Positions 1-52,800 are shown, counted from the stretch's first letter. The stretch is 64,000 bases of DNA from Bilabrum cf. latius (GCA_965178125.1 OZ237758.1:434001-498000); one strand, 5' to 3'. Notes: generated by a model not told the origin, from the letters alone. Numbers and translations: made by a program.

Positions 1-1108
1 CCACGGCCAGCACGGTCGCCAGCGCGTTCACCACCGAGGCCAACAGCGAACCTGACACTGCCGCCACGCCCGCCTTCTGGAACGTGTCCGAGGAGTAGTA
101 GAAGACCACGTTGATGCCAGACAGCTGCTGCGCGATGGTCAGAACCAGCATGATGGTGAGACTCCGCCGCAGCCGCTGGTCTCCCAGGACCTGCCACAGG
201 CTGGGTGCCTCCTCGTCCTGCCCCTGGGCGGCCTCCCGCTGCAGCTGCTCCAGCTCCCTGGAGATTTTGTTCCCTGCGCCCGGTGCTGTGGTGTCTCTGA
301 GCTGCTGCAGGCTCTTCTGGGCCTCTTGCTGGCGGCCCTGGGCGAGGAGATACCTGGGGGACTCCGGCATCATGAGACATAGCGCCACCTGCACGCCGCC
401 GAGCACCGCGCTGATGAGCAGCAGGATGGGCCAGTTGGTCGCGTAGGGCGAGGCGCCGCTCGGGAGGTTCTTCTGGAGCTGGGTGCCAGGGTCCACCGTG
501 ACGGCGAGGTAAAGGAGCTGGCTCGCCACGATGCCGATAACCACGGCGAACTACGCAAGCGTGCCGAACGTTCCGCGCATATGCTGGGGGGCAATTTCGC
601 CCAAATACAGGGGTCCGATCACGCTGGCTCCGCCGGAGCCGAAACCCGACAAGAATCGGCCCACAGCCAAAAGACCGTAACCGACGGGTCCCCGCAGTCC
701 CTTCTATCCAGCCATAAACTAAAGCACGCCCTGCAAGACGAACACGACACCCGACCACACGAGCCAGCTTCGCCGGCCCAGCGCGTCGGCAATGTATCCA
801 CCGGACTACGCTCCGACCATACCGCCTAGCGTAAACATCGACACAATCACGGACCAAAGCACTACGTGATCACCGTAATCGTCCATTTTAAGATCGCTTA
901 TCACCGAGTTTTCGGGCAAGTTAAGCACTCCCGTGTGCCACCCGAACTGGAACCCGCCAAACAAGCTCAGGCCTGCGACCACGTACAACCACCCACTAGG
1001 CACCGGCTAGTTCGTGACATTAGAATTCTACTTGGATTCATCCTATCCATTGATAGTATCAAACCCTCTCTGATCTACCAATGGGGCTGTTGCACTTTCA
1101 CGCTCCAT
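1..1108 (-). CDS. MFS sugar porter (GLUT/SLC2A-like hexose transporter), 3' end runs off the window; 7 in-frame TAG read as Gln
   Basis: One frame from ATG at 1108 to the window edge. It carries the sugar-porter motifs GGFQFGWHTGVLN, IADALGRR, GRFLSGFG, PLYLGEIAPQHMRGTFGTLA[TAG]FAVVIGI, PESPRYL and QQLSGINVVFYYS. TAGs at 1043, 1028, 1007, 806, 719, 704 and 551. Confidence 0.93.
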
Positions 1109-1386
1109 TGGCTTTGTTCGAAGCTGCCTGGCGCGAATGATGACCTATGTACGCTCAAATAAGCAGTAGATGCAGCTACAAGCCCAATTTAAACCAGAAG
1201 TGCGTGAGACACTCCAGGACAAACGAAGAACTACTGCTATGGCCGCGTCGACTGGTCGCCGTGGATCCTTCGCAAAGTGTACGCTACATTAATAATAATA
1301 CCGTAGATGCATTGCACGGTCAAGCAGGCAGGTTGCCGAACACTTTAAATTGCTGCAGATCACTCTTCGGTAGAGTTTTTGGTTTG

Positions 1387-6011: not shown

Positions 6012-9000
6012 TCACTCAACGCGTCTCTTCTTCTTTGCTGACCGCTTTCCTCGTGAATCCCCCTCGGCTGCCTCACCCGACCTGGCCACCCCGAACGCAG
6101 CCCCTGCCCGCCTGCCCGCCTTGGAGGCTCCTGCGACCGCCTTGCGCTGCGCCGTCGAGGACTCCGTTTCCGCGTTCGGCCAAGCGATCACCAGCTTGCG
6201 GCCGTACAGGTGGGTCGCACCGAGCTTGTCAGCCGCAGTGCGCGCATCCTCAGCAGAGGCGAAGTCCACGAATCCGAAACCACGGTGCTACCCATCGTGC
6301 CGACGGGGCACACGGACAGACTGCAGCTTGCCAAACGCGCCGAACAGCTCCCGTAAGTCCTGTCGCGTGGCCTCGAAAGCAAGGTTCTTCACCAAAAGCT
6401 TGCTTCCCTGACCAACATTCGATGCGGTGCCTTCCTTAAGCTCCTTGACAGCGGCCGAAGCTGAGGCCCGGTGAGCAGCAGACGGTCCCGCCTGCTTCCT
6501 GGATAGCTTCAGCTCGATCGAATGGCCGTCCAGCATGGCCCCTTGCAGCCGCTTGATGGCTTCTAGCGCGTCTTGCTTGTCCGTGTACTCGATGAAGCCG
6601 TACCCCATCGACAGCACGACGTCCTTGCCGCCGCGCCGCTCGGTCCTCGTGGGAATATGCACCGCTCGCGTCTTTCCCACCGTGTCTGCGAGCTCCTTGA
6701 GCCTCTGCTGCGTAGTGGCGAAGGCAAGGTTCTTCACAAAGATCGTCTTGCCGTCAACGGCAGAGGACAGCGAGGGTGCGGCAGTGCCCGCTGCAGCTGC
6801 AGTGGCAGCACTGCTGGGCTTGCCGCCCTCCGCACTGCCATCGCTAGGCAGCTTACCTTCATCGTCAGCTCCTTGCTCAGACGTAGAGGCTCTGGCCTTG
6901 CTGTCCACGGCCGTGCCAGCCATGTCGCTGTCATGCATCCCGCCGGCAGAGCGCTCGGACACCAAAGTGCCAGCCTCAAACAGCTGATCCGGAGCCCACT
7001 CGAGGTACAGGGGGACTCGCATGAACCTGGTGTATGCCAGCGAGCGGAATGCCTTCTTGGCAGCACGGGGCTGCTCGAATTCCACCAGGCAGATGCTCTT
7101 GGCCGGAGGCATCACGCACCGCACAAGAGGCCCGAACCGAGAGAAAAGCGACCGGACGGCCTCTCGCTCTACATCAGGCGGCAGCTGCTTGACAAGGATG
7201 ACGCTGTCGCTCCGCGGCACTGGGAGCCCCTTGAGGGCCCTCTCCATCACCTCGAGGTCCACACCCTCCTGTCGTAAGAACCCCTTGGTTTCCTCGATGA
7301 CAGCAGTCTCGCCCAATGCCAGCCGCACTGCGGGGTTGGACGCCGTCTTGTCCATGACTTCGTCTTCTGCTGCTCCCGAGGCTTTGGCTGCAGAGGCCAG
7401 CGCTACATCGGATCGCACGAGCAGAGTGTTCCACACGTTGGATTCCCTGCCGCTCCTGGCTGCCTCCTTCCTCTTCGCTTCCAATTGCGCCTTGTAGGTG
7501 CTTTGGCCCACCTTGCGCCTGTCCCCGCCCGACCAGCCATCGGTACCGTCAGCACTATCATCGTACCCCCCTGTCGGCTTTGGGGGCGGCCTTGCAGGCA
7601 TAACGTGCACGAGTCTTCCCATGAATACCTTGCCATCTGTTGAGTGCATGGCCCTTGCAGCACTGGCGGGGTCATCGAACGAAACGAAACAGATGCCCTT
7701 GCCCTTGCCAGATGCGTCCCGGGGCAGCACAACCTCCTTCACAATGCCAAACTCACCAAAGTGCTTCTGCACCTCGGCCTCTGTCGCAGCATAAGGCATG
7801 TTCCTGACGAACAGCCTTGACTCATCAAACTCCGGCTAGCCTTCGCCATCGCTGTTCTCGCCTTCGCTGTCAGAATCTCCTCCATCGGCCCGCCCCATTT
7901 CCTGCCTGCTCCTTTTCTTGCCACGACGGGCCGCCGGCTTCAGCTCACCATCGACAACCTGCAAGTCTCCGCCTTCGTCCTCGTCGCTGTCACTGTCACT
8001 GTCTCCATCACTGTTACTGCTGTCGCTGCCGCTTCCGCTTTCCCCGCCTGATTCATCCGAAGCCTTCGCTTCTCCCTCAGTGGCACCCTTGCTGGCGGGC
8101 CCCTTGGCTTGGCGCAGGAACGCCAGGTTGTCCTTGCTCAACCCTGCTGCAGACGCAGGTGCGTCGGCACCAGAGTCGCCGTCCACCGAGCTACCATCAT
8201 CTGATGCACTATCGCTATCGCTATCGCTACCACTATCGCTATCGCTGTCACTGTCGCTGTCGCTGTCGTCGCTGATCGACTTGCCTTCTTCTTCCTGTGC
8301 ATCCCCACCCAAAGCGGCAGCGCTGCTGGAAGAACTGGATGGGGCAGAGGCAGGTCCTCTGCCAGGGCGAGCTGATGTTGCTCCCTGTCCCGCGACATCG
8401 TTGCTCCAAGTCGATTTGTTCCCCTCGCCGCCCCCCATCACCCCAGCAAACTCCCTGTACAACGGGTCGTCGCGTGGGATGAGCCCACGGACACCCGTGG
8501 GATCTTCCTCTTCGCTCTTTTGCTGCGATCGTGGCTCTCTCTCCGCATCTCCATGCACTTCTGCATATTTACTAGAGCCCGGAGTGTACTTGCTCCATGG
8601 CCTTGGCAACGCTCCATCGCCCACCTGCATGCAGTAGAGTGCAAGTGCAACAAGACGAAATACAGTTGTAACCGAATAATGATGGATACTCCACGCAACC
8701 ATGGCTACAGACAATAAAGGAAATTATCTCACCGCCTTGGCAATTTCGACAACGATCCTTCCCCCGCCAATGTATGACTTGTTCAAGCGCCTAACTGCAA
8801 GTCTGGCTTCGCCCGCCGACTTGAACCCAACGAATCCAAAGCCACGAGGTCGACCATCTCTGCGTTAGAATTGGTAGCTTATGAATTCACAGCGTTGCTT
8901 CATGACTTCTGAGACGCACTGGCCTGCTGCACATCTCGCTAGTTGCACTCACTTGGTTTTTACAATTTTCAGATCTGTCACTGTACCTATCTTGGAAAAT

Positions 9001-9194: not shown

Positions 9195-10673
9195 ATGGCA
9201 GCTGTAGCCGGAGATGGAGCCGAAAAGAAGTATACCTATGGACAATACACAGTCGCTAAGGCCGAGGAGCTTGTAAACTTCTGTGTCGGACAGGTAAGAT
9301 CACATTAAACTTGGTGGCCTGCACGCGCATCTTTGGCAATCGATCCTTGAAGAGCGCTTCCGTTTGAGTAAATCGCAGCCGGCTCCATCTATGCTGCCTT
9401 TGGACAAGATCCGAGCGGCCGGAAAGGCCAAGTTCGAGGAGGATGACGTGAATCTCCTGCAGTACGGGCAGATCCCGGGATACCCCGAGTTCCGCGAGGC
9501 TCTCGCCAAGTTCCTTTCCGAGGAGACCAAGTTTCCCCACAAGGCAGAGAACATGTTCGCCACGAACGGCGTGACGGGCGCGTTGGCACTGATGTGCTCT
9601 CTGTTCCTGAAGACCGGCGACACGGTAGTGGTAGAGGAGCCCTCTTACTTTCTCGCTCTGAGCATCTTCAAGGATTTCGGCCTCAAGACCGTGTCTGTGC
9701 CTATCGATGAGAACGGCATGCAGGTGGAGTGAGTCCTGTTGGAAATGAGCTCTATATTTCCACCCATCGTTGCACCCGGCCCCGCACTGCCGTTGCCACG
9801 TCCGTCTTCCGCCCGCTTGCACTCGCATCGAATGGCCTCTCCCACATCGTGCACTGTCCCCGCAGCAAGTTGGAAGAGCTCCTGAAGGGCGGCCTCAAGC
9901 CCCAGGCCCTGTATACCGTGCCCGTGTACCACAACCCCACGGGATACACACTCTCAGAGGAGCGCAGGGTCAAGCTCGTGGCACTGGCGCGGGAGTACGA
10001 CTTCCACGTACTGGCCGACGAGGTGTATGAGATGCTCGGCTTTGAGGGGACCGACGGGTCAAGGCCCTCGCCTCCCAAACCCATGTATTTCTACGACGAC
10101 GCCGAGGACGGGCACGTCACGACCGTGGGTTCCTTCTCCAAGATCCTCGCACCCGCCCTGAGGGTGGGCTACCTGGTTTGCCCCGGGCACGTGATGAAGA
10201 AGATCAGCGATTCGGGGCAGCTGGACTCGAGCGGCGGCATCAACCCCGTCATGTTCGGCGTGGTGCACAAGGCCATCGACATGGGGCTTCAGAAGGAGCA
10301 CCTGTACGCGGTGCAGAAGGAGCTCGGCGAGAGGGCACGCACCCTCAGCGCCGCCCTCCACAAGCACCTGCCCGAGGGCTGCTGGTTCCAAGAGCCAGCG
10401 GGGGGGTACTTCCTCTGGATCCGCGTGCCCGAGGGCGTGGATGGCGCTCTCCTGGCTGACCACGCGATGGTGAATCACAAGGTGAAGGTTCTCCCCGGGG
10501 TCAAATTCGGCGACACGCTCAAGAAGTACATAAGGCTGTCGTACTCGTACTACAACGCGGCGGATCTGGCCACAGGGGCAGAGAGGCTGGGCGAGGCCAT
10601 CAAGACCTACATCGCCAACGGTGGTCCAGTTGGGGACGCTGCTGGAGCTTCGGCTCGCGCCGGGGGTCGCTGA
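9195..10673 (+). CDS. PLP-dependent class I/II aminotransferase (aromatic amino acid / 2-aminoadipate transaminase-like, ~418 aa; exons 9195-9293, 9379-9728, 9866-10673)
   Basis: Motifs LQYGQIPGYPEFREALA, TNGVTGAL, VVVEEPSY, YTVPVYHNPTG, ADEVY, GSFSKILAPALRVG (PLP lysine), PAGGYFLW and IRLSY. Two GT-AG introns. Ends in TGA. No in-frame TAG. Confidence 0.92.
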
Positions 10674-12342: not shown

Positions 12343-13989
12343 ATGGGGTCCTGTTGCTCTAGTGATAACGCTGTAGTTCCTGTGCAGTGAGACCACTTGC
12401 GGGAGCGGCATGTTTGCTCCATACAGTCGCAGATTCCTACGCCGAGACTTTTGAATCAATTTTTATTACACGCAGATCAGAAGCCGATAAGGAAGCAGTC
12501 GAAGCGTTGGAGAGGCGGAGCAAAGAGGCAATTCAGTTGATCATTCGAGATAAGCAGCAGAGGGAAGGCAACCAGGGCGCAAGTCGGTAGGACCTGTGAG
12601 TATGGTGCGAAATTCGGCACTATAGGTCGAGGAGTTGCCTTCAGTGGTGTGCTGTGTCACGCTCTGAGGTGCTCCACTGCGTACATTCACGAGCAACGGC
12701 GGCACAACCCAACTCATAGTAGGCCTGCGTGCCATTCTCTTGACTCCGACTTGCGAATGCATTCCCGAAACCCTCGCAGCAACTCTCAATTCAATCGAAT
12801 TATATTGAAGTTTCCCAAGGTTCGAAGAGCATTCAAGGCGGTCCGACGGGTGTTCGACGAGTTCGACGACGACAATTCCGGGACGATCGACCGTGGGGAG
12901 CTGCGCAACTGCCTCGCCGCTCTCGGCGCCGAATTGGCAGAGGAGGACGTAAAGGAAATGTTCGCTGGTTCCCAGCTAACGGCTCAGGGTGAACTGGACT
13001 TCAAGGAGTTCCTCGTCGCACTCTCCCTGGGGTCGGTGCTGCAGCTCTTCCCCAGCCTGAGGGCCTACTCGGCCGTAGACCTGCAGAAGCTCAAACAGGA
13101 GGAGGAGGCCAGGAGAGGGGGGCTAGAGGACGGATAGACCCTGCCGGCGAAACCGCCCAGCGCAGCCGCCGCGGGATCCGACGACTAGGAGGGAGAGAGC
13201 AAATACAAGGTCGACACCAACGTGGGCGAGACCGCCCCCGCAACATCCCCGGCGCGAGCGGGGCCCGCAGACACCTCCGGCCCCGTGACCCACGCCGTGA
13301 CCCCCCACACCCGCGCCAAGCTGCAGCAGAAGGGACGCATGCTGGTGGAGGGCCTAAAGATCGTGCTGGAGGCCTACTGCCTCTTTGACCAGGACGGGAG
13401 CGGAACCATCGACAAGGATGAGGTGCTCGGCATGATTGCAGAGGCTTCCAGCGGCGGGGCCAAGCGAGCTCACGGCGCCTCGCAGGGAACAAGCGCGATG
13501 CTCTCATCGGAGCGGTGGTCGCAGCTAGACTGGGACGACGACGGGTCCGTGACCCTGAGGGAGTTCATCAGCGCCTTCTATTCCTGGGTGGGACTGGATG
13601 ACGACGACGAGGACAACACGGAGTACGACACCGCGGCGCCCGAGCAGGGGGAACAACAGCTTGACGAGAGCGGCAAGCCGGTGAGTCTCGAGGACAGCGC
13701 GCCCACGCCGGCCCGGGTGCCGCCTCCCACTTCCGAAGCCCTGCAGAAGGAGGAGGCAAGGGCGAGCAAGCCGAGGGGTGGTGCCTTCCGGAAGAAGGAG
13801 TCGTGGACAAAGGGGAGCAGCGGGGCGGCGTCTGCGGGCTCGGGGGGCCCATCAGCGGCTGCTGGCTCTGCTGGTGTTGCCGCGGGCAGCAGTGGGGCCG
13901 GTGGCGTGGTTGTTGATGAGCACGGAAGAAGGGTGTCTTTCGATGGCAGGGGTGGAGGTGCCGCCGCCGCCAATGGGGCGGGCAGATGA
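12343..13989 (+). CDS. N-acylated EF-hand calcium sensor resembling plant CML21/22 (~457 aa; exons 12343-12386, 12476-12595, 12780-13989)
   Basis: N-terminus MGSCCSS; FNRIILKFPK...FDEFDDDNSGTID; ELDFKEFL; FDQDGSGTIDKDE; LDWDDDGSVTLREFISAFYSWVGLD. TAG at 12588, 13135 and 13186 joins the two EF-hand pairs. Ends in TGA. Confidence 0.85.
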
Positions 13990-18036: not shown

Positions 18037-18369
18037 GCCTAGGGACCTTTAGCAAGTGCTCAGGGCGAGATCTAGTGAGTAACGAATCTTGGCGGAGCGG
18101 GATCCGAGAAAGCAGTGAAGGTTCGCTTGTAGCCGGCGCTCCAGAGAGACAGCGCAATCAGACGATAAACTCCGTCACACAATTTTCAATTCACGTGTCA
18201 GATTTTGAATGGAAATGCGGCAAGACGGGGGCTGTCGGAGTCAAGGACGCTGTTGAGGTCACAAGGTCACAACACTGACTGCAACTGCGGAGCGGGCGCA
18301 AAGCACAAGCTAATTGTTGGACTGGCGAGCATCAACGCTTAATTTATTCGCATAGATACGTCGGACGTG

Positions 18370-20166
18370 ATGTCAAGTGACTCGCCGTGGCAGCCTCCGG
18401 CACAGAAGCCGTCTCGTCAAGCCATGCTCGAATCTAAGCAATGCAGAGTGGCAGGTGGACCTGCCTTGATCGCCTCGAGACCGGACAGTATGGTAGACCA
18501 CGTGGAAATGAAGCAGCCTCTTCGAGCACGAGGTGCCAAATCAACTGGCGCCGATCGTAACCTGTCGACATTTGAGCCCGCGTCCAGCTCGTCTGGTGCC
18601 GCAGTAGGCACGGTCAAGCTGATTGCCCCGGGTGTATTCTACATTCCTAAATTCCTTGCAACGCGAGCCTTGTAGGAAGAGCTGCTTGGGGAGTTTGACC
18701 GCATTTGCGGGTGGGACGCACCGTCACCATCCTCCGGAAGTTTGCAGAAGCAAATGCCTGCTGGTTCTATCGATCTGGTCCGAGACGAACGCGAACTGCC
18801 GCCAAGGGCGGCATTCGTGCGAACGACTACTATATTCGGCAAAGTTGGTTTCATGAGCTGTTATGTGCAGAGTGCTGGCTTAAAGTGGACGTACGAGAGC
18901 AAGCTGAAACATGGTGACGGTGCTGCCAGCTCGCAGCAAGCCGCTGCAGAGCAGGCCAAGCGGCTAGACTCGAGCGCTTAGAGCAGAAGTGCCTCCACTA
19001 TAAGCAAGAAAAGCCGGCCAGAGGGTGCAGCCAAGTAGTAGCCGCCACCGAGGGAACAAGTGGCCCAGATGCCAGCCAGCTTCAGGCGGCTCTATCACCT
19101 CGCGATTGGCATGTGCGGCGCGAGTCCAGCGTGCTTTTCTCCTCGTGCCAAAGCCGACCTGTGCTTCTGCAACCTGTACCCCCGGAACTGGGGCAAGATG
19201 GGATGGCACAGCGACAGAGACGAGAGCAAAACATCGCTGGAGAGGGGTGACCCCGTGGTGTCTCTCTCTGTGGGCGATGCGGCAGAGTTCACTCTGTTCA
19301 TCCCTAAAGAGCTGGACGCGATTGATGCATCTTTGTACATGGGAAATGCTGATGAGGCAAAAGCGTCTAAAATTTCAGGGCGCGTATCTGAGACCGGTGG
19401 CATCGCTGTTTACTTTGGCCGGGGAAGTTGCCAGTCTGCGGCCACTGGTGGCACCTCGGCTTGCAGCGATGCCAGCAGTGCGAAGCACCACTGTCTGCCT
19501 GTGGTTGAGACCAACGACGGCGACGAGGTGGTTGACCTATCGGACGATTCAGAGACAGAGACTTCACCGCTGGCTGCTGCTGCGAGTTCGTCCAGCTCGT
19601 CAAGCTCAACCATGAGGCCCGCTACTAGCCGATCGCAAGCGTCCAAGGCGGGGAGTGGAGAGCGAGCTTGCGCGTAGCCGCGGGCCGCCAGTGCTCCCCA
19701 ACCGGGCAGCAAGCGTGCACGGATCGAAAAAGCATCGACCACAAGGCTGCGTGCAAAGAATCACCCCCAAGCCACCGGAAACACACCGAAAGGCTCGGAA
19801 GGAGCCGGGTTTGCGGCAGCGAATGAGAGTGCCAGTGGGGCCTGCAGTCCTTTCAAGAGGCGTCGTGTGGAGAAGACGGGTAGCAACAGCTGCATGTCAC
19901 GGGCCAGTGCGACCCAGAGTCGAGCATCCAAGCCGATAACTGCATCATTAGTGAAGCCAGGGCTAACCTGCCGGTTTAAGGGGCCGGGCAAGTGCAAGGG
20001 CAGGGTCGTGACAGTGCTGCTCAAGTCAGGTGACTGCCTCGTGTTTGGGGGGCATGCTCGCCTTGTATACCATGGCATTCGCAAGATTGTTGGGCCTGTG
20101 GGCAGGCCTCAGGGGCTGAGGATGATCGACGGAAGGCTCAACGTGACTCTCAGATGCAAGGCGTGA
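18370..20166 (+). CDS. AlkB-family 2-oxoglutarate/Fe(II) dioxygenase (~598 aa; 5 in-frame TAG)
   Basis: PGVFYIPKFLATRAL[TAG]EELL; CFCNLY...KMGWHSDRDE (HxD); PVVSLSVGDAAEF; LKSGDCLVFGGHARLVYHGI (distal His); GRLNVTLR. The catalytic residues join into one protein only if TAGs at 18673, 18979, 19036, 19039 and 19675 are sense. Ends in TGA. Confidence 0.9.
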
Positions 20167-38787: not shown

Positions 38788-39012
38788 CCTTCAAGCGAGA
38801 ATTGCCCTTTACCCTGCGCCTTTTTCAGCGCACAGCACCGGTTCGCTTTGCAATCAACGAACGTTCGTCTCTGGGGCGACCTCGTGGATTTTTCGTTTGA
38901 TGCTCAGCACTGAAAACCTGATTCAAATTAGAATAAGTCAGCATTTTCTCTTTCATATACAGTAGATCAAGATATTTGGAAGGACAGGATCCCGTGCAGC
39001 ACCGCAGACGCT

Positions 39013-42000
39013 ATGCTTTCAGCATAGCAGCTGCATGCGATCTCGAGAGGCCTGCTGACAGACGATTCCAAGGGTGCTGGTGCAAGGCACAGCTAGCTGG
39101 CGCTTGAAAAGAGTCTGGGTGTTCTGAGCCTGCATCTAAGCACGCATCCTTGCAAAGGATTACCACGCGGTGTTCGGAGAGGATTGCTCCGCGTTGCTCT
39201 GGGCCAAACCTTTGGTTCATCAACTTCCGCGCTCGCTTTGCGTCTGCTCCAGCAATCTTCGCCTAGCTTCTTTGCATAGCCATGCGTCAGCCGTCTTGTG
39301 GCTTCTGGGGGCGAAGCGGCCGTTGCACAAGATGAGCAATTCGTGGCAGCGGTATCTGGCGGGGCTTGGAGGGGCGTCTTGTCGCTATCTGAGGGTTCCA
39401 AATGCCTGGTATCCTGCAATTAGGCTATGGGAGCAAGCGCAGCGGCATGCACACGTTTCTGGCTCGGCGGGGAGGGGACGCTGGAGGCCATTGTGTCCGC
39501 GACTGAGCCCAGCCCCTCCACCCATCCGGCAGCCATGCAAGCAGCACTCCCTGTCCTCGCCAGATCCATGCGAGTTGCCTGGAGAGCTGTAGATCCCGTA
39601 TTATCAGGGGAAAGTGGCGAGGGTATCGCCGGCAGCGGCTCAGTCGGGGGCGACCTGCCGTTTGCTTCGCACAGAGATGCCGCGCGATGCAGGACTACCT
39701 TGAGGAAGGTTCTCCCGGGCTTCGTCAAGCACCTGCTCGGGCTGTGCATCGGGGAAGACGCTGTGGCAGCGGGTGCAGCCGCTGAGGCGCTGCTTGTGCT
39801 CATCGCGAGCGACTGTGCCCGGTGCGGTCTAGATGTTGGCTGGGACACTACGGAGACGGCTGGGAGCTCTGCTTCGACAGGCGGGTCACTGGGAGACGAA
39901 GACGATCCTTTCTTGCGCATGTGTGGTGTCCTGCATGCGGGCGATTGGTCTCTTGGCAACTTTAGCGGGATGGCCGTCGAAGGTGGCTCAATTGCCGCGG
40001 GTGTTGGCTGGAGCGGGCCGTGGTCTGCTTGGCGGTGGCACTTCCTCAGGGCAACTGCAGGGCCCCTGGCAGGCTCCTTGCCCCTACTCGTGGGCGCAAT
40101 GGACGGCGTTCCTCCTCGCGGACGGCAGAGCCTCATGGGATTGTGCTCCTGTGTTGCGTTCGTGGCCATGCTGGAGGATGAGCACGGTTGGCGCGGGCCT
40201 CGCCTGGGACCATCAGGTGAGAACGTCTAGAATAGTGGGATAGAACAAGAAGAAGAGGACATACTGTAGGCCGCGAGCAGGAATAAGCACTCCACAGATG
40301 CAGCTCCAGATGCAGAAGCTTTGCCACCTGCTGCATCTGGAGCTGGGTCTGACGACTCCATTGCAAGAGATGCCGAGTAGGGGTCTCGACGCCGCCAAGG
40401 CAGCCATGTAACCTCGACGCCTCATATACCACACAGCATGGCCGGACTCTTAACAGAGACAGCTTCAGCCTTGGCGCGACTGCAGTCTCGTGTGGCTACC
40501 AGCGAATCACCGTCGGGCGGCAGTGCCTCTGTTACTGCCCCTCAGGTGATCGAGGCCGCGCGTGAGGCGGTCGAGCACGTTGCTGAAGCTGCGCTGGCGC
40601 AATCCTTGTCGCTCGATGTTGAGACGGAATCGGTTGGAACAAGGCGAGACACGGACGAGGCGGCAGATGGCTTCGACACTGACCGGGACTGGGTTGCCGC
40701 TGAGAGCGCCCTCCAAGGCCTTCGGGAGCCAAGCCTGGTACGGATGGCGATCGGCGCGTCAGTGAACGATCCATGCGTGGTGCCTCTTGTGCGGCAAACC
40801 GTCCTTGCTGGCCTTTTGCTTCCAAGGCTCCTGCATTCGCAAGAAAGGGTAGAGGCCGACACCGCTGCTGCGTGGCTCTGGGCGCTGGTTAGAGCCATCA
40901 CCACGGTTGGCACCAGCGGGACTCTCCTTCTTCGCGGGTGGCGATCCGGATCCATCAGCCACACCAAGACACAGCCCGCAGTAGTGCGGTAGCACGGTCG
41001 GTCTGCCCGTCTCATGCGTGCGGTCTTAGCCGAGACCCATGGTGCTATCACCAGCTCGTTGCGACGGCGGGTAGAACAGCATATGCTAGGATCTGGTTCT
41101 GGCAAGCTAAGCCTGCCCCACCAAACCTCCGAGCGAGTATTTCAGCAGCTACTTCTCTGCCTGGCGTCTGGGGATAACCACGCTATTTTGCGGCAGGCAC
41201 CGTGGCTCCTCGCAGCTGCAGCTGCGATTGATAGCGAACTGCATCGTTGGCAGATCCTCAGGCAAGCTGCAAGGCTGTGTGTGCTGGCAACGATTCGATC
41301 AGTAATGGCTAGGGCTGCAGGCACTGCGGAATATAGACCGGCTGTGCCCCGTCTTGTGAAGACCCTGGAGAGTGGCATTGCTAGCATGTGCGGGGCATAC
41401 TTGTCCGTCGGTCGCCTTGCGATAGTCCAAAGAGCCCTGCTTGTGGAGCTCTGCGGGGCAATGCGTACGTGCGTTGCAGGCACGGAGTTGGCCAGTCGCT
41501 GGATGCAAGAGGCGGGTGGCCTTCTAAGCGAGTCCTTGTGGGCAGTCAGAAGTGTGGTAGAGGCCAGCGTGTTGGGGAAAGGACGAGGTGCTGCGGCTGC
41601 ATCCAAGCAGCATAGAACCGTCGCAGGCATGAAGCCAAGACACCTGTGGATTGGGTTACAGGATTCTCAAGCACAGCAAGCCAGCGTTGACCACGAGCAA
41701 ACGTGTCTCTTGGCTCACGCTTGCGTTGATTTGGCATCGGGCCTTGCTATGCAAGGTGCTACGCGGGGCAAATGGGTTATCAAATTGGATGGAAAAGGCG
41801 CAAAGCGCAGCATACCGCTGTCCAAGGCAGCAGTGCGCGCAGCGGATAGTGCTGTCGGACACGTGATGCGCGCTGCGTCTGACGAGGTGATCACTCATAT
41901 TGCAGAAGCTGCTGCGCGGGAAAGGACCATCGTGCTGCAAGCAGCTGCGGCCCAGGCAGCCAGTCAAGAGTCAGCAGTTAGTACGGCGATGGCAGCTGCG

Positions 42001-45000
42001 CTACGGAGTTCTGGGGAAGCGCACTTGATGCTGGCAAATAGCAGCGAGCGCTCGATAGCTATCGATCGAGCAGCACGGCGGATTGATGGGGCAAGCCGTG
42101 GGACCGACTAGCAGGCGTCAGCCAGCGAGATCGTTCGTGCTGGGTCACAGCGCGCGAGGCTGAACAAGACAGGCGGTGGGTCTGGCCAGGATCTCCTGTC
42201 TGGTCAATCCTCTGCAGACGCGAAAGGTGTGCAGCAGCTCGTGGCTGCCGGTGTACGGAGTGACTCCGTCTCGCAGGCAGTCTCTTCAGGTGGACTGCCG
42301 TCCTCCTTTGCGTCTGGGTCAACTCTGAACGGACACTTGCCAGTGCAGGCCATTGACGCAGCTTCTTGCCAATAGCTGGCATTGGCATCGCAGTCAACTT
42401 GGAGCAAACCACCAACGGCTGGAACGCTCATATCAGTTGGTCTTGTGGCAGGCGGCATGCTCGCACCTTGGGACTAGGCCTCTGTTTCGTCCAGAAGGCT
42501 CGGCAGCGGCGGGGCGCAGGTGCAGCTAGATGGGGATGAAACCAGAGACTCTACGTACAAGGGGGCTGTCCTTCGCGGGGAGTTGTCCCGGGCCACGTAG
42601 TGCTATAGTGGTGTTGCAGTCGCAGTGAGGTGCGCTTGGCTTCGGCTGTGGGGTCTCGGCGGTGAGTTGCACCCAGTTGGCGGTCCCGGTGAGGAGTTGC
42701 CTGCGAGTGTGAAGGAGGCCATGCTGATGGGAACTGCTGATGAGGCTGCTTCAATGTGCTCTGGGCTGCTCCTGTCATTGTGCGGGGCCGTTGGTGTTGG
42801 AAGGCAGTTTCCGTCGCTTTGCCTTGAACCTGACCCGATCGCCTCGCTGCTGCCTCCTGCGGGCAGCTCTGCGACTGGGCCCCTTTCTGCCTTCAGAGCT
42901 GATATTAACAGGCTTGGCAGCTCGTTTAGGCACGGTCACGGACTTGGGATGCGATGGAGGCTGCAAGCCCACAGGCTAGGAGCACCAGTTGCTGCGGCGC
43001 AAGAAAAACGGAATCTATCCATCCATGCGCCTGGGATCAGCGGTTTGCTCGCCGCAGGAGCGGCAGAGTCGGCAATCCCTGCCGCAGGGACGGTTGCGAA
43101 GCGGCTGGGCGTCAGCAGGGCCTTTGGAGACGCTGCATGGTACGGACCCCACGGAGAAGCCCCAAGCACTGATGAAGGCCCTTCTGGTCTGGGCTGGGTC
43201 ATGCGGCTTGGGTCTCGTGTTGCCAAGCGTACCCGATGCGCGTTCAAGACTCGAGCAGTGGCGGCTGCAAAGGCCGCTGGGCTGCGAACAACTCCTCACG
43301 ACCGTGAGAATCCTTTGCCGAGCGAAGCAGTCAAGGTGCTGGGCCCAGGTGGGCACCTTGCAATGGAAATGCTCGTGCATCTATCCATGTCGTGGCCGAT
43401 CGCGACTTGGCCTCTAGTGTCGCGAGTTGCCAGCCAGCTACTGCGTTTGCCCACTCTATCCAAGGAGTTCCGACGAGAAATAGGCAATCTTCTTCAGTCT
43501 TCTAGAGCTGCAGTGGCTGCTGACTTGGCACTCCGGACCGCCGCGACTGCGAGCGGGCCAGACCAGCTGCCAAAGCACGCAAAGAAAGGGAACGAGAAGA
43601 AAGCATTGAGCAAGAACCAGACGTTCGACGAGGCAGGCCTTGCCGCTGGAGCAAAAGTCGCGTGTGCAGCGGCAGGAGCTCGGTCCACGCTGGAGATCAT
43701 TGCAAGCGACGACTCAAGTCTAAAGGCCTTGTCGCCCGAGGCAACGACGACTGCCGCTGCAAAACTTGCGGCTTGGTTGCGCCTGAACCTGCCCAGCCCC
43801 AACAATTCCGCTCGATCTGAAGCATCTCCAGTTGATGATAAAGACGGAAGCGTCGAACAAGTTGCCTAGTCTGTGTATGCCTTGAACCAGGCTTTGGTCG
43901 CAACTGCGCGACAGGCGTCAGCCGTGCATATTAGCACGTAGTCAAGAGGCTTGCAGCTGACCACTTTAAGTCTGGAGCAAAGCTTGCGACGTAGACCCAT
44001 GGACAGTGGATTACCTCCGAGGTCAAGTTCGGTAATGCAAGTCGCCATTGAGGATGTCGGCCTTGGCGCTGTAGCAGAGATCGCGGATCTGCGACCTGTA
44101 GCCCTCGTCGATCCGGCGATGCAAGCGATACGGGCCGGCGTGATTGCAGCACCGCGCCCTTCGGTAGCCGCTTTGTCAGCCAACAGAGACCGGCTTGTTT
44201 ACAGAGTGGGCAGCAGTCCCATCCTGCCCTCAGTTATGTCGGGCATGTCGGATCCACTTCTCATTGCGGGCTGGTCCAGCGTGATCGGCCGGGCGTCACC
44301 ACAAGCACCTGTCGTAGCCATTGTGGCATTTGAGGTAACAAATTTGATGCGGAGGAGCCTCTCAGGGCTGAGGCTAACGGCCAGGTGTGGACAGGGGACA
44401 ACCCTGATCGGTACCTCGCCGCATGCTTTCTTCGATGCTGCAGCCGCAGAGACGATCCCAGCTGGGTACAACTCAGGCACGTTTAGCTCGGGCCATCGAT
44501 TCCCTGGGCAAGATTCGTTCGCTGCCTCAAGGCTTCTGTCGCTGCCGTCTACCGCAAGGGCTGCAATTCTTTCAGCCACTTAGTCAGCGGAAAAGGGTCT
44601 TGGCCTGCAGTCTGACCCTGTGCAAGGCGGCGGGGGAAGCGGCGCTGAATCACTCGTCAGCGGGACCGGTGGAAGCGTGGTGTCTGGGCAGGCTTCCATT
44701 CTAGAACGCAAGGGGAACGCCTCCTTACGCGGCTCGAGTGAGATGGAAAGGCATGCGCAGAGCACCTCGTCTGCTGCGGGTTGCGGCGCGGGTGAAGGGC
44801 CGGGGGCCGCTGCCTCCCTATGGCTCCCGCGCGGCAATTCGGCACACGCAAGGTAGCTTGCTGTCCGCCGCGAGCTGCCTCCCAACCGACGAGTGTGGTG
44901 GGCAGTAGCTTTGAAGCTGACGGGAACGGGACTGGATGGGCACGCGTGCTCCCTGGAAGTTGCAGCCACATCCATTGCTGAGGGCGATGACGACGAAGAT

Positions 45001-48000
45001 GATGACGAGGACGATGATGGTGGGCTCAGCGATGGATCCTCTGCTCCGCCCGGCTCCATTAGCGCATCGCCGATAAAGTCAACGTCTAGCAAGCGGGGTC
45101 TCACAGGATTGGCTGGACTTCGAGGCGGCACAGGCGTGGAGGAGAGCAAAGCGGTCGACCCCGAAGAAGAAGTCCTCAGGCGGGCTCCAGCTGGGCAAGG
45201 TCCCACTGCAAGCGAGCTGGCTGGCTTGCGCGGCGGTGGCGCTGGAGTTACCGGGCTAGAGCAGCTGCCCGACCTCGGCTGGCTGCGAGAGCAAGCCCCC
45301 GATCCAGACAGCGACACGGATTCCGACGTTGGTGACGAGGGTGGGCCCATGTCCATTGGAGGTGGCCGGGCCATGCCGCATGGGTGGAAGCAGCGCTCCA
45401 CCGACGCGGAGTGGGACTCGCCGATGATTGGTACGAACTTTGCAAAGGAACTCGGTGTCTCCACCACCCGATAGCGGACTGCCACCGGAGGAGGAGTCAT
45501 GTGGACCGGGGGAGGCCTATCCAATCGAGGCACCGCGCTGCCTCGCACTCAAATAGCCCCGTCATCGCTGGCTACAGCGGACCAGGAAGGCATTTCGCTC
45601 GAGGGCTCTCCCTTGTCAAGTCGCCCGCAGGTTCCGGGATCTGGTATTGGTGGTCGCTCAAGGGGTGGAAGAGGCCATACCGCCCGTAGGTCCTCAACCG
45701 CCCTCATTCAAACAATGGGACGAGGCGGTCCAGGCTCAGGGAGGCTGAGCCACGGTCGATCCGGATCTATCGTACCAATGTCGTTTGGCGGGGGGTCATC
45801 AATTGGTGGGAATCACAGCAAGGGCGGTGGCTCGATTGCAGGGAGCAGGCGACTGTCTACGATCTTATCACCCCGCGCCAGAGGGTAGGCACCACGATCT
45901 CGTGGGAGCGGTTCTCACGCCGGAAGCAGCGTGGCCGGCGGTTCAACTCGGGGTCCTGCAAGCCCCAGGCGGCATTCTAGAGCAGTTTCTAGCGTTGGTA
46001 TCGATTCAATCATCGAAGAGAGCGGCAGCATTCGCGGTGGCAAGTCCGCTGGCTCGGGCAGCATGGCTGACACAGCGTCAGTGGCGTCAGAGGCTGTCGT
46101 ATACGGCGGGGCTGGGGATGATCCGAACGGCGAGGCCGCATCTAGGGTGTCAACGCGAACTTTGAGGATACTGTCGTCGCCACTTCGCGTAGATTGGACG
46201 AGATCTTGCCAACCGCTGCCCCTTGGCTTGCATGATGCTGGAACACAAGCCACTGGTGGCAGTGGTTGCCAGCAGGTACACCTGGGCTGGCTTAAGTCCT
46301 TGCCGTACCATAGCATCGCTGAGTTTTCGTGCGTGGCGGGCACCGACTTGCCTGACTTGTGCGATGCTGTCATTGGGAATTTGTCACGAACACAGCCTGT
46401 TGCATCTGCTGCGTGCGCTGCTTCTAGCAGTCAAGAGGATGCGATGGACTCTGCTTCGGTCGCGTTCCGATGCCCGGACGGTTCACTTCTAGTTGTACAG
46501 ATAGATCTGTTCGCTGGGTCGAATCAGGGGAACTTGAAGCCATTGCAGAATGCCAGTCATTCGTTTCGTATCCTGTCGTCGCAAGGGGTTCGATCTGATC
46601 TTGACGGAATCGCAAACCGCCTGAAGAGCGAGCGTGACGGCGCTGCTGATCGCAAGCAATCAGTAGAATCCCATTCCGATACGGATGAGCTGGATTTCCT
46701 CGCAAGTGCTGGTAAGCCAGCGTAGGGCCTGAAACATGCAGATGTTACGGCTGGGACACACGACCTCCATGCCGATAAGTCCTGGGCACTGGGAGATTCG
46801 ACTCAGCTGCACCAACCACTGCATCGTTTTGTCGTCTAGATTGCAGCATCGTCGAGCTCCTTGCATCGAGCAGTGCGAAGCAACATTTCGACTATATTTG
46901 GTCAGCTATGTGCTGGCATGTGTGTCGGGCCCACGGCACTCATTGCGTTTGGTGAAACAAGCAATACTGCGCTGTGTTCTGCAGCACCGAAGGATGTGCA
47001 GCTGTCAAGAGCAACTAGGGCAGCTGCGGCGATTGGAGCGGCCCCGTTGTGGGAGGTGGTCAAATCTGCATCGTGCAGCACTGGTCCAAACGTTTTGAAC
47101 GGCTACGCTTTCATCGGCAGCTACGCTTCAAGAACCACGGCAGCGGTCCGTGCGGTGCAAGCCGGCCACGCGGCCCTCGTAGCACTACCCGCGCTCTTGC
47201 GAATCACGACAAGTCTGGTCAAGGCGAGCCTCGGGCGGGCTATTCCAGGGCACGATCAGAGGGTTCTGTCCAGGACTGTCTCTGATAGCACCGATGGAAG
47301 CGACTTGTTCGGCGCATCCGCTGGGGCCGCAACTGCGAGCCGACAACCCGCAGCTACTCGGGGGCAACAGGATGGCGAACTACCCAGTCTTAGTCACCTA
47401 AATGACGCGGTCAAGACGCTTCGGTCGCGTCTTGCTGCTGCATCACAGGAGTCATCTTCGAGTGAGTATTGCGTTTCGCTGTCGATCCAGGCGCTGCTGG
47501 TAGCTATGGACTCCTGGGTATCGCGGGGAGGCAGTGCGGTCGAGTCTTGGACGCAGTAGATCGAATCCGCCATGCGACTTACTGGAGCATCTCGCACCGC
47601 TGAAGTGCTAGTACTTCGGGCCATGGCTGATGAATATTCCACTGCCAAAGTTGCTGGGTCTCTGCTGGCTCGTGCGTAGGACTGGGTTGCAGCAACCGTT
47701 GGCACACAGCTTGGTTCCTCCACGGAGAAAGACAAGCCCTTTGAAGCTGTCTTTGGCAATGATAACGAATCACAATCAGTGACAGAAGCAAAAACTAGCG
47801 TTGGAGCCGTTGCGAGCAACAATCCTGCTTCGTCGAGAACGGGAGAATCAGATTCTGGCCCTGTCAAGCAGGAGCCAGTCTCCCACGGCTCTGGTCCTGC
47901 CGAATCTATCCATAACGACTCTAGCGCTGACGATTTTGACCCCTTCGGTGGCAATGAAGCTGCATAGCAAGCGCCGAGTGCTCAAGCCAAGACTGCAGCT

Positions 48001-49506
48001 GCACCTGCTCCAACACCTGCGGTCGCACCGAATGCTGCACCGCGTTCCTTGGGCGACAACGTGACTGACAACGGCGTTAGTAGTGGGAAGCATTCACCCG
48101 AAACGTCATCATCTGACAAATTCGATGATATATTTGGCGCAGTGGACTCTGTAAGCGAGGACAGCAGTGCTGTCGTTGTGGGCAACACAGGTGGAGCACC
48201 AGGTGGAGCACTGGGCGTTAATGGGCCTCCAGGACCAGATGACATGCTCGCTGCTGGCGAAAGCTCTGAACTGGATTCAATAAGCAAGCAGCGCGCTGAT
48301 AAGTCCAATGCGATAGGGACGGACAGCTCTAGCGTTGGTACTGTTGGTTCGATTGGCCTGCCACCCCCGAGTGAAGCCTCCGGCCCTGGCATCGCTTCTT
48401 CGAGGTCCCGGCGGCGTGGCAGTCGCAGGCACAGGGCTGCATACGACGCGGGGACCATGGTAGTCAAGCCTGTCTCAACGGTCCATGAAAGAAATGAAGG
48501 CACTGTTGAACATGTACAGAATGGTGAATCGACCGCGGAAGAGCCGGCAACCGCAGCCAATGCCAAGGCAGAGGGTATCACCGATCATGCCGATAATCCA
48601 TTCGACTTTTTCGTCGGAGCAGAGGAGGGCTCGGCATCTACTGCGGGGAAGAAACAATAGGACGCTGCACCCAGCACGCACAGTGAAAGCCCCGACCAGA
48701 GCGCGGGCAGAGATGGGCCCCTCGATGTGGGATTGACTGGTTTGCCCCCACTAGGCAATGCTGCTGGTGACGGAGAGTTGCCTCCACTTGGAATGGATAC
48801 TAACGATACGGGCTCAGTTTCCGTCGAGCCTGCGCCCCCCTTACCGCAAGAATCTGCGGAACAGGCCGAATCAGGCTTCAACCCATTCGATGCGTTTGGA
48901 GAAGCAGCAGCAGACGAAGAAGACCAGGGCAGTGCGGCTGGTAGTGCAGACACCAAAGCCACGGCAATATCAGGGCAGGAGCTGCCGCCTCTAGGCTCTG
49001 TCGAGGGCGGACTGCCTCCTCTCGGTGGATTGCCACCTCTTTCCCAGTTCTAGAGCCATGCACCCGGAGGGAACAGGCGCATGTCAGCCGGTGTAACAGC
49101 GGGGCCTTCTCAGTTCGCGTCGTCAACTGGAATAGCAGGACTTGGTGACCGCCACGGTACGGGAAGCCGACGCACCACGATTGCGGGCCTGGGTGGCGAT
49201 GGTATCTCACCACTTGGCGTGTTTGGCACAAAGGATGAAGTTTCATCAACATCAATTGCACCCGCAACTTCACAAAAATCTGCTAGCGGGAGGACTCGAT
49301 CGAATCGGCGCTCTCGGCAGGGAAGGTAGTCGTCTGCCGGGGCCAGCATCGACGCCCTCTTTTCCTAGGGAGGCACCGCTGCAGGCACCTCTGGCTCTGC
49401 AGCGACTAGCTCTAAGGGCTCTCGACGACGCGGCAGGAGTCGTGCAGGACAGTCCAAGCCGGTTTTGAAGGAAGATAGCGAAGAAGAGGATCTGTTCAGT
49501 CTGTAA
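39013..49506 (+). CDS. Very large uncharacterised protein (~3,497 aa; ~27 in-frame TAG) with helical N-terminal region, adaptin/coatomer-appendage-like motif and acidic DPF/NPF tail
   Basis: Fourteen ORF-track pieces from 39427 to 49081 share a frame, and I read every gap as TAG-only. The first in-frame ATG found is 39013. The frame ends ...EEEDLFSL-TAA at 49504-49506. Function is inferred only. Confidence 0.78.
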
Positions 49507-49808
49507 AAGGTCGGTTGTCTTGCTCAGTGACAGGTTTGCAAACTTGCAACAGATCATGATTGATAATTCACTTCAAGTTTCATTTTAGAGCAAATTCAAA
49601 ATTCTGTTAGCAAAAAGCAAGGCACACGAAGAAAACAAAGTCCCGAGTCTCGCCTGGCCACTAGCTGGCTCCTTCGTAATCATGCACTGACCATACTATA
49701 GTACTGGCCGCGGCGCCGGAAAATGCCGAACACACCGGAGGATGGCCTCTGACCTACACAGGCGATATCTACGCCAACTGCAAACTTTCCAACCACTCGT
49801 TTGCATTC

Positions 49809-52800
49809 TTACTTGGGCTTCTTGGGTGCCTTCGGTTTCTGAGCCTTCCTGCGCTTCTTGAGTGCACGAAGCGCCATGTTCTATGCCCGAGCCTCCTTGC
49901 TCTTGCGGTCGAACATTGTGATCATGCCCATAAGCTTCGCACGATTCTTGGACTTCTATCCCTTCAACTTCGAAGCCTTTTTCTTGCGCCCCGATGTGGA
50001 GCGAGTTGATCGAGGTGAAGCCTGCTCGCTGTCGCTGTCGCTGAAGCCTTCGTCCCACCCCATCCCGCTGCTCCGCCTTGCACCAGCCGCTGAGTGTGGT
50101 CGAGTCGCACTCACAGTCGCAGGCGACAGCTCGATGCCACGATCTGCGCCGCCCATGTCGTCCTGGCTGCTAGGCGATTCGCCGGCCTTGAAGGCAAGCG
50201 GTCTCATGGACGTGCTCTGGCTCAGGCTCCTGGCACTGGCCTGCCCGAAATCGCTGGGGGAGGTACCGCGTCCGCGTCGCATAAATGCAATCAATGAGGC
50301 AGATGCTGGGCTATCGCCTCTTTCGCCCTCGGGTGCGTCTGTCTCCTCCGCCACCGCACGATGCAGCTGACCCGCCGCCTGGTGCACGACCCTTCCAGTT
50401 GTGCTGGTCCGACGCCGGCCCCTAGCCACCGCAAAGGGGTTCAAATGGCTCTCAAACTCACCTGCACCAAGCACGCTTGCATCTGCGCCTAAAGTATCCA
50501 TTGAGGAAGGGGCTTCCTGACCCTACGATTTGGCTGCAAGTCTCGCCCTTTCGTCCTCTCCACGCATAACCATGGCTCGCATCGGGTTAAGCAGCATGAT
50601 TGGCATTCCTTCCCCTGGGATGTCACCTGTGAGCACTGGACCACCTGTTCCAGCGCCGATCTAGGCCGTTTTGATCCGCCCCGTCACGGTGGGGCCCTGT
50701 GAGCCGATTCCAGGCGGCTTTCTGGGAGGTAGTGGCGCTGTGACTGCTGGACCATGGCTTCCGCTCACTCCTCCCTGTGGAATAAGCATGGACGGGCCGC
50801 CAGTTCCACCGCCGATCTGGTTTGTCACGATACGGCTCGTTATGACAGGCCCATCCGGCCCTCGTCCGCCTCGCTGACTCGCGACTAACCTGCCTGTCAG
50901 GCTCGGTCCGGCCGTGCCTCGAGTTGCCTTCTTGATGATAGCCGCACTGCTAGCACGGACGGATGCTACGGGGTTCTCCTTAATCGTTTTGCTGGGTTTT
51001 GCGACCATCGGACCGACCGTCCCAACGCCTGATAGCTCATTCACGGTAGTGTGAATGGCTGGAGCGGTGGTTTGGCTCGGTGCCCTCCTTCGCGAACACA
51101 TCGACACGCAGAAGCACACACAGCAGAACATATACGCGCACGCACCAGCAGCAGAGGCAAAGACCGAACCGCATGCGGAGCAAGGCCCTTCTAGCCTAGA
51201 CCCGACCGCCCCGAGAACGGAAGAGCCCGCACCGAGAGCTCCTACCACGATGCCCCGGAACTGGTGCCAGAAACTCGATATAGCAAAGAGGATGAGCCAG
51301 GTGTTGCATATGATCACCACCCAAGTCGCTGGTGCCTCGATGCTGATGCCGTAGGCCTCAAGAATTTGCAATTGCCTCTCGACTTCGATTGCGAGCACCA
51401 TCAACAAAGAAACCGCGGCCGTACTGATCGCAAAAAGCTCAAGTTCATTGAGAGGATCATCGTACTGGTACCGAACGGCTGGCACTTGACGCACGGCTGC
51501 AGATTTTTGGTTGCCAGAGGGACTCCCGTCTCCGTCTTCGTCGTAGTTTGCGAATACGTTGAGTCCATCATCGATGGCACCGAGCAAGTCAATCAAGGAG
51601 GGCGCGGACAGCGGGTCCGTATCTTCCTCTCCCTCTAGCATGCTGTTATAACTAGCTAATGAGGTGGTTGATGATGCGCGTACAGCCCGTGGGGGAAGCA
51701 AGACCGGACTCGCCGGGATACCGGTCCCCATACCGTGGGTGCCGACACCCAGCGGGATGCCCGCCACTATTGACCCGAGCTGCAGTTTTTCATCGTCGTC
51801 ATCGTCATCATCCTCGTTGATGGCCGCCTTGGAATCCGTCTCTACGTCAAAGAGAGTCTCGCGGTTCGCCAAGTGAGGCCCATGATGGAACGGGCGATGG
51901 GTCGTTGGTCGGCTCGCCACGCGCTGCAGCTGGGCTGCAGCCCTTGGATTGCCGTACAGCGAGACTCGAGTGCCGCGCCGCACCCGGGCTGATGGTGCCT
52001 CCATCACCACAGAGTCATCGGCAGACGGTGAAGCGCGCCTTGTTCCATTCCGAGTCGGTGTGCCCGGACTGCCGGGCGTAGCCGAACCGATATCGGGGCT
52101 GGAGGACCGTGCTGCCCCTTTCTGCTTCATATTGAGGACGTCATAGCGCACCACCGGTTCCATAGACTGCCGCTTCTGCATCCTGGCGTGCATGAGCCAG
52201 CGGCGCACTGCATCGCGCTGCTTCGCCTTCTCGTAGAGCCGCACAGCGCCGTTGCACCGAAGGCACAATGTCTTCGAAAGCCAGTACAAGAACTTGCCGC
52301 AGCAAAGCTCAGAGTACGGCTTGTCCATCAACTCTACTTCAAACAGCGCCCTGTCACGTCTCGCTCCATTCCCGTGCGCGCTGGCCCTACGAATCTGTCC
52401 GCTCAACTGTTTGATTCGCGCTCGGCAATCATCCGGGTACCGGTTTGCAACGACCAAAAATCTGGCTTTTCGCGCGAGAAACTGACCTTCAGTCTCCGTA
52501 ATGGACTTGATCGGTGGTACGGGTTTCGGCGGCATCTTCTTTAGCACAGCATTGATCATGTGGTTGAACAAGCTGTTCTTCCACTTGATGTAGGTCACAT
52601 CTGGCATAGCTTCCCACTTGACATTTTCGGGGAGGCTCTCTTCTTCATCCTGCTGCGCAGACAAAGACAGGCTCTGACTCGCAGAGATAGAGCCCCGGTG
52701 CCGAGCCGAAGGCTACGTCGTGCCATTCTTCACTGCCTGAGACTGTCGGCGGCGGGCAGTATTGCCGCCGCTGCTCTTGCCCATGATTGTACCCCGTCGC

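Follow-up and report, generated by a model that had tools for sequence, protein, structure and literature searches.

In many ciliates, hexamitid diplomonads and some ulvophytes, UAA and UAG have moved together from termination to glutamine (Gln; NCBI table 6). Hartmannula sinica, Trochilia petrani, Protocruzia tuzeti and Iotanema spirale are reported to read UAG as Gln and to have retained termination at UAA (PMC11687900). Here we analyzed the genetic code of a 64-kilobase (kb) stretch of DNA, given as one strand (hereafter, the window). Its initial annotation had proposed that UAA and UAG are decoupled in this DNA and had called a UAG-only reassignment rare, with I. spirale as an example of UAG read as Gln, in agreement with both published accounts (PMC5304391, PMC11687900). 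We conclude that the nuclear code of the window is very probably of the NCBI table 15 type, in which UAG encodes Gln, UGA is the main stop and UAA a minor stop, so that UAA and UAG are decoupled. The type of code is already known, and the lineage is apparently one for which it had no earlier report.

Among the described systems, H. sinica and T. petrani likewise read UAG as Gln and stop at UAA and UGA, with UAG spread as a synonymous Gln codon and no sign of a dual meaning (PMC11687900). They are, however, ciliates in which UAA is the dominant stop (93.5–100% of aligned C-termini; PMC11687900), whereas here UGA ends 10 of 12 genes and UAA 2 of 12, and the window organism is a GC-rich (guanine plus cytosine) non-ciliate with long contigs. 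I. spirale (Fornicata) is likewise a non-ciliate protist in which UAG alone moved to Gln and UAA was kept as a stop, and the mechanism predicted for it is the same, a tRNA-Gln(CUA) together with an eRF1 altered in its recognition of UAG (PMC5304391). It is a metamonad studied from its transcriptome only, with UAA as the dominant stop (PMC5304391), whereas the window is genomic DNA of an apparent stramenopile with UGA dominant. In the nuclear codes of exLh (UAG as Leu) and Scotinosphaera (UAG as Ser), UAG is also decoupled from UAA (PMC5304391, PMC11687900), but the amino acid is Gln here.

Stop codons in frame and at gene ends

When all three standard stops are applied, the open reading frames (ORFs) of the window are fragmented, whereas with TAG read as sense, and with ORFs delimited by TAA and TGA only, 12 long ORFs are obtained on both strands (Table 1). 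They measure 1,585, 903, 320, 174, 482, 1,125, 607, 3,118, 1,482, 713, 3,530 and >4,729 codons. A 13th, partial gene, encoding the sugar porter P0137, lies at the left edge of the window, and its stop codon is outside. Reading the 12 gene ends directly from the sequence bore out the initial annotation, with each end in its place and each stop codon as claimed, and the peptides ahead of the two TAA were confirmed as ...EEEDLFSL (49504, plus strand) and ...KAPKKPK (49809, minus strand). UGA terminates most of these genes (10 of 12 ends, none in frame), and UAA the other two. The claim that UAG never terminates rests on the visible ends, none of which is TAG, a sample of 12 that leaves room for UAG to end a gene now and then in other parts of the genome.

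Over the 18,768 codons of the 12 ORFs, TAG occurs in frame 122 times and neither TAA nor TGA occurs at all, which confirms that internal TAA is absent. The same DNA contains 77 TAA, 192 TAG and 274 TGA in one of the off-frames, and 75 TAA, 141 TAG and 424 TGA in the other. The absence of TAA is partly circular, given that TAA and TGA served to delimit the ORFs. The ORF lengths escape this circularity, with 3,118, 3,530 and >4,729 codons free of TAA in the three longest, while the off-frame rate predicts about 76 TAA in total. In purine-ending codon pairs the A-ending member has a share of 0.18–0.32 (CAA/CAG 228/529, GAA/GAG 338/707, AAA/AAG 125/408, TTA/TTG 51/236), and a TAA synonymous with TAG would be predicted to occur about 27–57 times in frame beside the 122 TAG; the observed number is zero. 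With this imbalance, and with TAA found at two gene ends, the decoupling of UAA from UAG is upheld. Codes of the table 6 type share with the window the capture of a stop by Gln and differ from it in UAA, which has not moved here.

UAG as a glutamine codon

Judged by comparison with related proteins, UAG is an ordinary Gln codon in the genes of the window. The assignment made in the initial annotation, a sense codon read as Gln, is supported by the residues of close relatives, by one TAG on a Gln conserved across its family and by an even spread of the codon. TAG makes up 122 of the 879 Gln-type codons (~14%) in the 12 ORFs, with eight more in the 13th, partial gene, and its numbers in successive fifths of the gene body are 27, 29, 21, 27 and 18.

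At positions that could be aligned to close relatives (73–88% identity), the relative carries Q opposite 7 of 11 TAG, and opposite 18 of 28 ordinary Gln codons (CAA or CAG, hereafter CAR) in the alignments with P0138 and P0011, two relatives from public protein sets. Because its match rate equals that of the CAR codons, TAG behaves as a Gln codon. In the sugar porter, compared with P0138 (80% identical), all four TAG of the membrane domain (806-808, 719-721, 704-706 and 551-553) correspond to Q; three in the variable N-terminal tail lie opposite S, E and K, and the eighth is upstream of the first Met. The TAG at 551-553 supplies the Gln of GTLA-Q-FAVV and is aligned to that of GTL(H/N)QLGIV in GLUT1, GLUT3 and GLUT4, a column that we take to be that of the substrate-binding Gln161 of GLUT1. 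Of 117 more distant homologues, 88 have Q in this column, 16 have S, 10 have N and 3 have E.

The same pattern is seen in two other genes. In MRD1, aligned to P0011 (73% identical), the TAG at 6288-6290 (DG-Q-HRGFGF) corresponds to Q, and the other TAG, in a linker, is opposite V. In the tail of the giant protein P0010, both TAG covered by P0260 (88% identical), at 49956-49958 and 49881-49883, correspond to Q. All five TAG inside conserved domains, four in the sugar porter and one in an RNA recognition motif (RRM) of MRD1, are Q in the relatives. Other comparisons were uninformative: in the AlkB-like and RING proteins, aligned to PDB entries, TAG either falls in unaligned segments or meets a variable column (Q522 versus V in MGRN1), and in the alignment of P0008 with P0010 it is opposite mostly polar residues, at a divergence too high to be informative.

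The use of TAG varies by gene, from 0 in 1,125 codons of the acyl-CoA oxidase and 0 in 320 of the aminotransferase exon to 12 in 713 of the RING ligase and 8 in 429 of the sugar porter. Some genes of the window may thus avoid TAG. Avoidance of UAG has been reported for ribosomal protein genes of exLh (PMC5304391).

Termination at UAA

The two TAA ends belong to a convergent gene pair, P0009 on the plus strand and P0010 on the minus strand, and were analyzed separately. Past the TAA of the P0009 gene, the reading frame next meets a TGA after 8 codons (49528-49530). The 126 nucleotides (nt) that follow this TAA have 37% GC and a codon-usage score of -0.62, compared with an in-frame median of +0.20.

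Contigs of four sequencing runs were placed over positions 31200-51199 of the window, three of them RNA-like (X5, X6 and X8) and one source-like (X1). In the RNA-like runs the contigs break in intergenic spacers and the depth differs between genes (6 to 83 in X5), whereas X1 is flat at 15.9. One X5 contig (record 9, 45807-49514) stops 8 nt past the TAA of the P0009 gene, 14 nt short of the next in-frame TGA. A TGTAA motif begins 12–13 nt ahead of this end (49514, plus strand), and likewise ahead of two other RNA-like contig ends, at 31790 (plus strand, X8) and 31892 (minus strand, X5). Counting both strands, TGTAA occurs only 27 times in the window, and we estimate that the coincidence would arise by chance at about 4 in 10,000 ends. 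At the other gene ends no TGTAA was found within 300 nt.

Because TGTAA precedes each of them and is rare in the window, these contig ends have the appearance of genuine poly(A) sites. The motif is probably a poly(A) signal of the UGUAA type, with cleavage about 8 nt downstream. The P0009 gene would accordingly have a very short 3' untranslated region (UTR), probably of about 8 nt, with its TAA stop overlapping the signal. If 49514 is a true poly(A) site, UAA must terminate, as the mRNA then has no further stop. By themselves the contig ends give a hint of termination at UAA, which the motif strengthens. The contig-free stretches between convergent genes (31824-31891 and 49515-49586) were not taken as evidence alone, and only contig ends combined with TGTAA were used.

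For the minus-strand gene, the last 630 codons of P0010 were translated under table 6 past the TAA as far as the following TGA (+42 codons), and the product was searched against 1.84 billion representative proteins. P0260 (221 amino acids), 88% identical over residues 411-630, ends with the same ...KAPKKPK at the TAA at 49809. None of the eight matches in this protein set reaches into the 42-codon read-through extension.

Alternative readings of the code

Several observations weigh against the table 15 type of code. The window shows no more than 12 gene ends, of which just two are TAA. Four of the 11 covered TAG are not Q in relatives (S, E, K and V), and all four are in variable tails or linkers. 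The RNA nature of X5, X6 and X8 was inferred from their contigs; none of these runs is recorded as RNA, and X5 was automatically labelled 'probably DNA'. Only one run has a contig that ends at 49514, and contigs mark transcript ends poorly. The end of P0260 is a partly dependent observation, since a conserved TAA halts a standard-code gene caller whatever its meaning. The 42-codon extension past the minus-strand TAA has a codon-usage score of +0.07, which is low but within the range of coding sequence; two TGA-terminated genes score similarly downstream, and composition does not discriminate for this TAA.

The small number of ends bears on a context-dependent code, in which UAG would be Gln inside genes and yet terminate some of them. 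Reassigned stops with a dual meaning are known from Condylostoma, karyorelicts and Blastocrithidia, and at a typical TAG share of ~25% of stops, finding none among 12 ends has a probability of ~0.03. TAG is, however, not depleted near gene ends (18 of the 122 are in the last fifth), and it is found 24 and 46 codons ahead of the two TAA stops. All 12 ORFs continue to TGA or TAA, two dedicated stops are still available, and we regard a context-dependent code as improbable. The four non-Q positions could also be read as a sign that UAG encodes another amino acid (Glu, Lys, Leu, Ser, Tyr or pyrrolysine), as in the rhizarian exLh, where it is Leu, and in Scotinosphaera, where it is Ser (PMC5304391, PMC11687900). 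Against this stand the seven Q among the 11, which include all five in conserved domains and the two in the giant protein's conserved tail, the match rate equal to that of CAR-Gln codons, and the one TAG on a Gln-dominated column (88 of 117). An amino acid other than Gln is hence very unlikely.

Two further alternatives concern UAA. Under a code of the table 6 type, UAA and UAG would both be reassigned, TAA would be rare owing to the high GC content, and the genes would end at the next TGA. In-frame TGA do follow, 8 codons past the TAA in the plus-strand gene and 43 codons past it in the minus-strand gene, and the 42 codons in between are not clearly non-coding by codon usage in the latter. 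The absence of in-frame TAA beside 122 TAG is nevertheless difficult to reconcile with the 18–32% taken by A-ending synonyms. The sequence past the plus-strand TAA is AT-rich and scores as non-coding, the X5 contig ends 8 nt past that TAA, behind TGTAA and before the TGA, P0260 ends at the minus-strand TAA, and no protein aligned to the extension; such a code is extremely improbable here. Alternatively, UAA could be unassigned, that is avoided and undecoded, with UGA as the sole working terminator and the two TAA ends accidental. Ten of the 12 ends are TGA, and an unassigned codon would likewise be absent in frame. Yet TAA is the end of two long ORFs, one of 3,530 and the other of >4,729 codons, the RNA-like contig of the plus-strand gene ends before any TGA, which would leave its mRNA without a stop, and the protein of a relative ends at the TAA of the minus-strand gene. 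We know of no eukaryotic eRF1 that reads UGA but not UAA, and we give an unassigned UAA hardly any credence. The table 15 type, with UAG as Gln and UAA and UGA as stops, is the reading followed below.

Predicted decoding machinery

The steps of the mechanism follow the argument made for Iotanema and exLh (PMC5304391). Decoding would depend on a tRNA-Gln whose CUA anticodon differs by one base from the standard CUG and pairs with UAG but not with UAA, and no tRNA-Gln with a UUA anticodon would be present. The N-domain of eRF1, altered in its stop-codon recognition motifs (GTS, TASNIKS and YxCxxxF), would have lost efficient recognition of UAG while keeping that of UAA and UGA. For Iotanema, a T32G change in eRF1 has been proposed (PMC5304391). 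ARAGORN found no tRNA genes in the 64-kb window, and eRF1 is not among its genes.

Relatives that appear to share the code

Relatives at 73–92% protein identity to the window appear to share its code. The predicted proteins P0259 and P0262 end directly before the window TAG at 50661-50663 and 50523-50525, respectively, and P0138 ends directly before a window CAG-Gln codon (338-340). P0139 (97% identical) ends at a position where P0182 carries Q. Because their predicted proteins break off at TAG or Gln positions of the window, the simplest reading is that the relatives probably carry in-frame TAG themselves, mistaken for stops by standard-code gene callers.

Fragments 73–97% identical to window proteins (P0011, P0138, P0139, P0182, P0259, P0260 and P0262) are present in several collections of public protein sets. 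A metagenome scan with MRD1 returned nine loci, all of them distant (30–61% identity over parts), and the contig of the 73% identical relative was not among them. Scans of genome contigs and viral contigs with P0260 found no relative.

Phylogenetic placement

The MRD1 search returned one metagenome protein at 73% identity (P0011), followed by matches at 41–54%, one cluster of which is Cafeteria roenbergensis. We built a tree of 35 rows taken from the 120 listed matches, combining the best unnamed matches with named representatives of the main groups. The window and P0011 were sister to a five-row clade that includes Cafeteria (Shimodaira–Hasegawa-like approximate likelihood ratio test, SH-aLRT, 99), within an 11-row clade (99), and oomycetes, green algae, chytrids, animals and amoebozoans were placed elsewhere. 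Two points count against this placement: it comes from one gene, and several rows, Cafeteria among them, have a deviant amino-acid composition. Provisionally, the tree suggests that the window organism is sister to a clade containing the bicosoecid stramenopile Cafeteria.

Cafeteria roenbergensis/burkhardae (Bicosoecida) is the nearest named relative in the MRD1 tree, and its MRD1 homologue of 922 amino acids is predicted full-length. It is only ~49% identical to the window MRD1 over the aligned part. Cafeteria uses the standard code, and its database proteins are predicted full-length under that code. No report of a nuclear UAG reassignment or other code variant in stramenopiles or bicosoecids was found in the full-text literature searched, a body that leaves most subscription journals and supplementary tables outside its scope.

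Genes and coding capacity of the window

The window is nuclear DNA of a GC-rich, intron-poor unicellular eukaryote, with a GC content of ~60% along its entire length. Its genes (Table 1) are nuclear, with GT-AG introns and eukaryotic identities such as acyl-CoA oxidase and MRD1. The aminotransferase intron is canonical (GTGAGT...CAG), ~136 nt long, at about 9729-9864 within the region 9298-9870 (plus strand). Introns are few and at gene 5' ends, in MRD1 (8724-9170, minus strand) and in the divergently transcribed aminotransferase gene (plus strand). No joints were found in the contigs placed over 31200-51199, and the P0009 gene, covered by X5 contigs (38923-49514), has no visible intron. A giant-virus or prokaryotic origin was rejected on account of the GT-AG introns and nuclear housekeeping genes. 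Pseudogenes and assembly errors were rejected as the source of the TAG codons, since all 130 fall in a single reading frame, in ORFs that extend over thousands of codons, and contigs from four sequencing runs match the window with no differences listed.

The MRD1/RBM19 protein has four RRMs (Pfam E 2e-66). P0008 and P0010 are distant paralogues (21–37% identity). Each combines a multi-pass C-terminal region with IPT/TIG repeats and with FG-GAP repeats or DUF7630; P0010 also has Thr/Ser/Pro-rich tandem repeats. For P0009, none of 2,241 scored candidates (1,941–6,178 amino acids, from 5.8 billion proteins) reached E 0.001, in a search limited to that length range. NPF, DPF and FxDxF-like motifs abound in the C-terminal third of P0009, which leads to the terminus EEEDLFSL, a tail reminiscent of those of endocytic adaptors.

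Table 1 Genes, gene ends and 3'-end signals in the 64-kb window. Coordinates count from the first letter of the window.
Feature	Coordinates	Strand	In-frame TAG	Stop	Remarks
GLUT-like sugar porter P0137, N-terminal two thirds	2..1288	-	8 in 429 codons		Pfam PF00083, E 3.2e-67
ORF, 1,585 codons	1144..5901	+	13	TGA	
MRD1/RBM19 main exon (P0002)	6012..8723	-	2	TGA (6012-6014)	5' exons 8724-8864, 8949-9170
Class I/II aminotransferase, last exon	9711..10673	+	0	TGA	320 codons
ORF, 174 codons	10987..11511	-	0	TGA	
EF-hand protein ORF	12541..13989	+	2	TGA	
Acyl-CoA oxidase (peroxisomal type), 1,125 codons	14453..17830	-	0	TGA	
AlkB-like 2OG-Fe(II) oxygenase	18343..20166	+	5	TGA	Pfam E 2.5e-22
Giant IPT/TIG + FG-GAP membrane protein P0008, 3,118 codons	22384..31740	+	17	TGA	
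Coiled-coil protein, 1,482 codons	32100..36548	-	9	TGA	
MGRN1-like RING E3 ligase, 713 codons	36646..38787	+	12	TGA	includes a TAG-TAG-TAG run
P0009, 3,530 codons	38914..49506	+	28	TAA	no Pfam family
P0010, giant IPT/TIG membrane protein, >4,729 codons	49809..63998	-	34	TAA	5' end beyond window
TGA ends	5899, 6012(-), 10671, 10987(-), 13987, 14453(-), 20164, 31738, 32100(-), 38785			TGA	ten ends
TAA ends	49504(+), 49809(-)			TAA	two ends; convergent gene pair, 300 nt apart
TAA terminator of P0009 gene	49504..49506	+		TAA	first in-frame TAA/TGA after 3,530 codons with 28 TAG
TAA terminator of P0010 gene	49809..49811	-		TAA	after ...KAPKKPK
TGTAA motif including the TAA stop, and contig end	49502..49514	+			probable poly(A) signal and cleavage site
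TGTAA motifs	31778-31782(+), 31899-31903(-), 49502-49506(+)				upstream of RNA-like contig ends
Probable 3' UTR of minus-strand gene, ~222 nt	49587..49808	-			X5 and X6 contigs (two studies) end at 49587 and 49589; weak hint

Significance of a decoupled UAG

The UAG-only nuclear reassignments are few (Iotanema, exLh, Scotinosphaera, Protocruzia and some phyllopharyngean ciliates; PMC5304391, PMC11687900), and each is a natural test case for why UAA and UAG nearly always change jointly. A GC-rich background with UGA as the main stop is the opposite of the situation in Hartmannula and Trochilia (PMC11687900). A direct view of tRNA-Gln(CUA) and eRF1 was not possible for Iotanema or exLh, as described by Pánek et al. 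(2017; PMC5304391). The window belongs to a genomic contig of at least 212 kb, and its source assembly should directly reveal the tRNA-Gln(CUA) gene and eRF1. The lineage recurs in environmental data, in which its genes are shattered by standard-code gene callers.

Genomes of giant viruses with alternative codes, assembled from metagenomes, may indicate unrecognised hosts (PMC13524828); those genomes are viral, whereas the window is cellular nuclear DNA. The most far-reaching reading, in which an undescribed, environmentally recurrent clade of heterotrophic stramenopiles related to Cafeteria acquired UAG as Gln independently, represents the first nuclear stop reassignment in stramenopiles and provides the missing kind of host for TAG-as-Gln giant viruses without a decoder of their own, is speculative and unlikely to hold in full. 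A Cafeteria-related protist that reads UAG as Gln would be a candidate host type for such viruses. If the placement is true, the window would add a further independent origin of the UAG-only reassignment, in stramenopiles.

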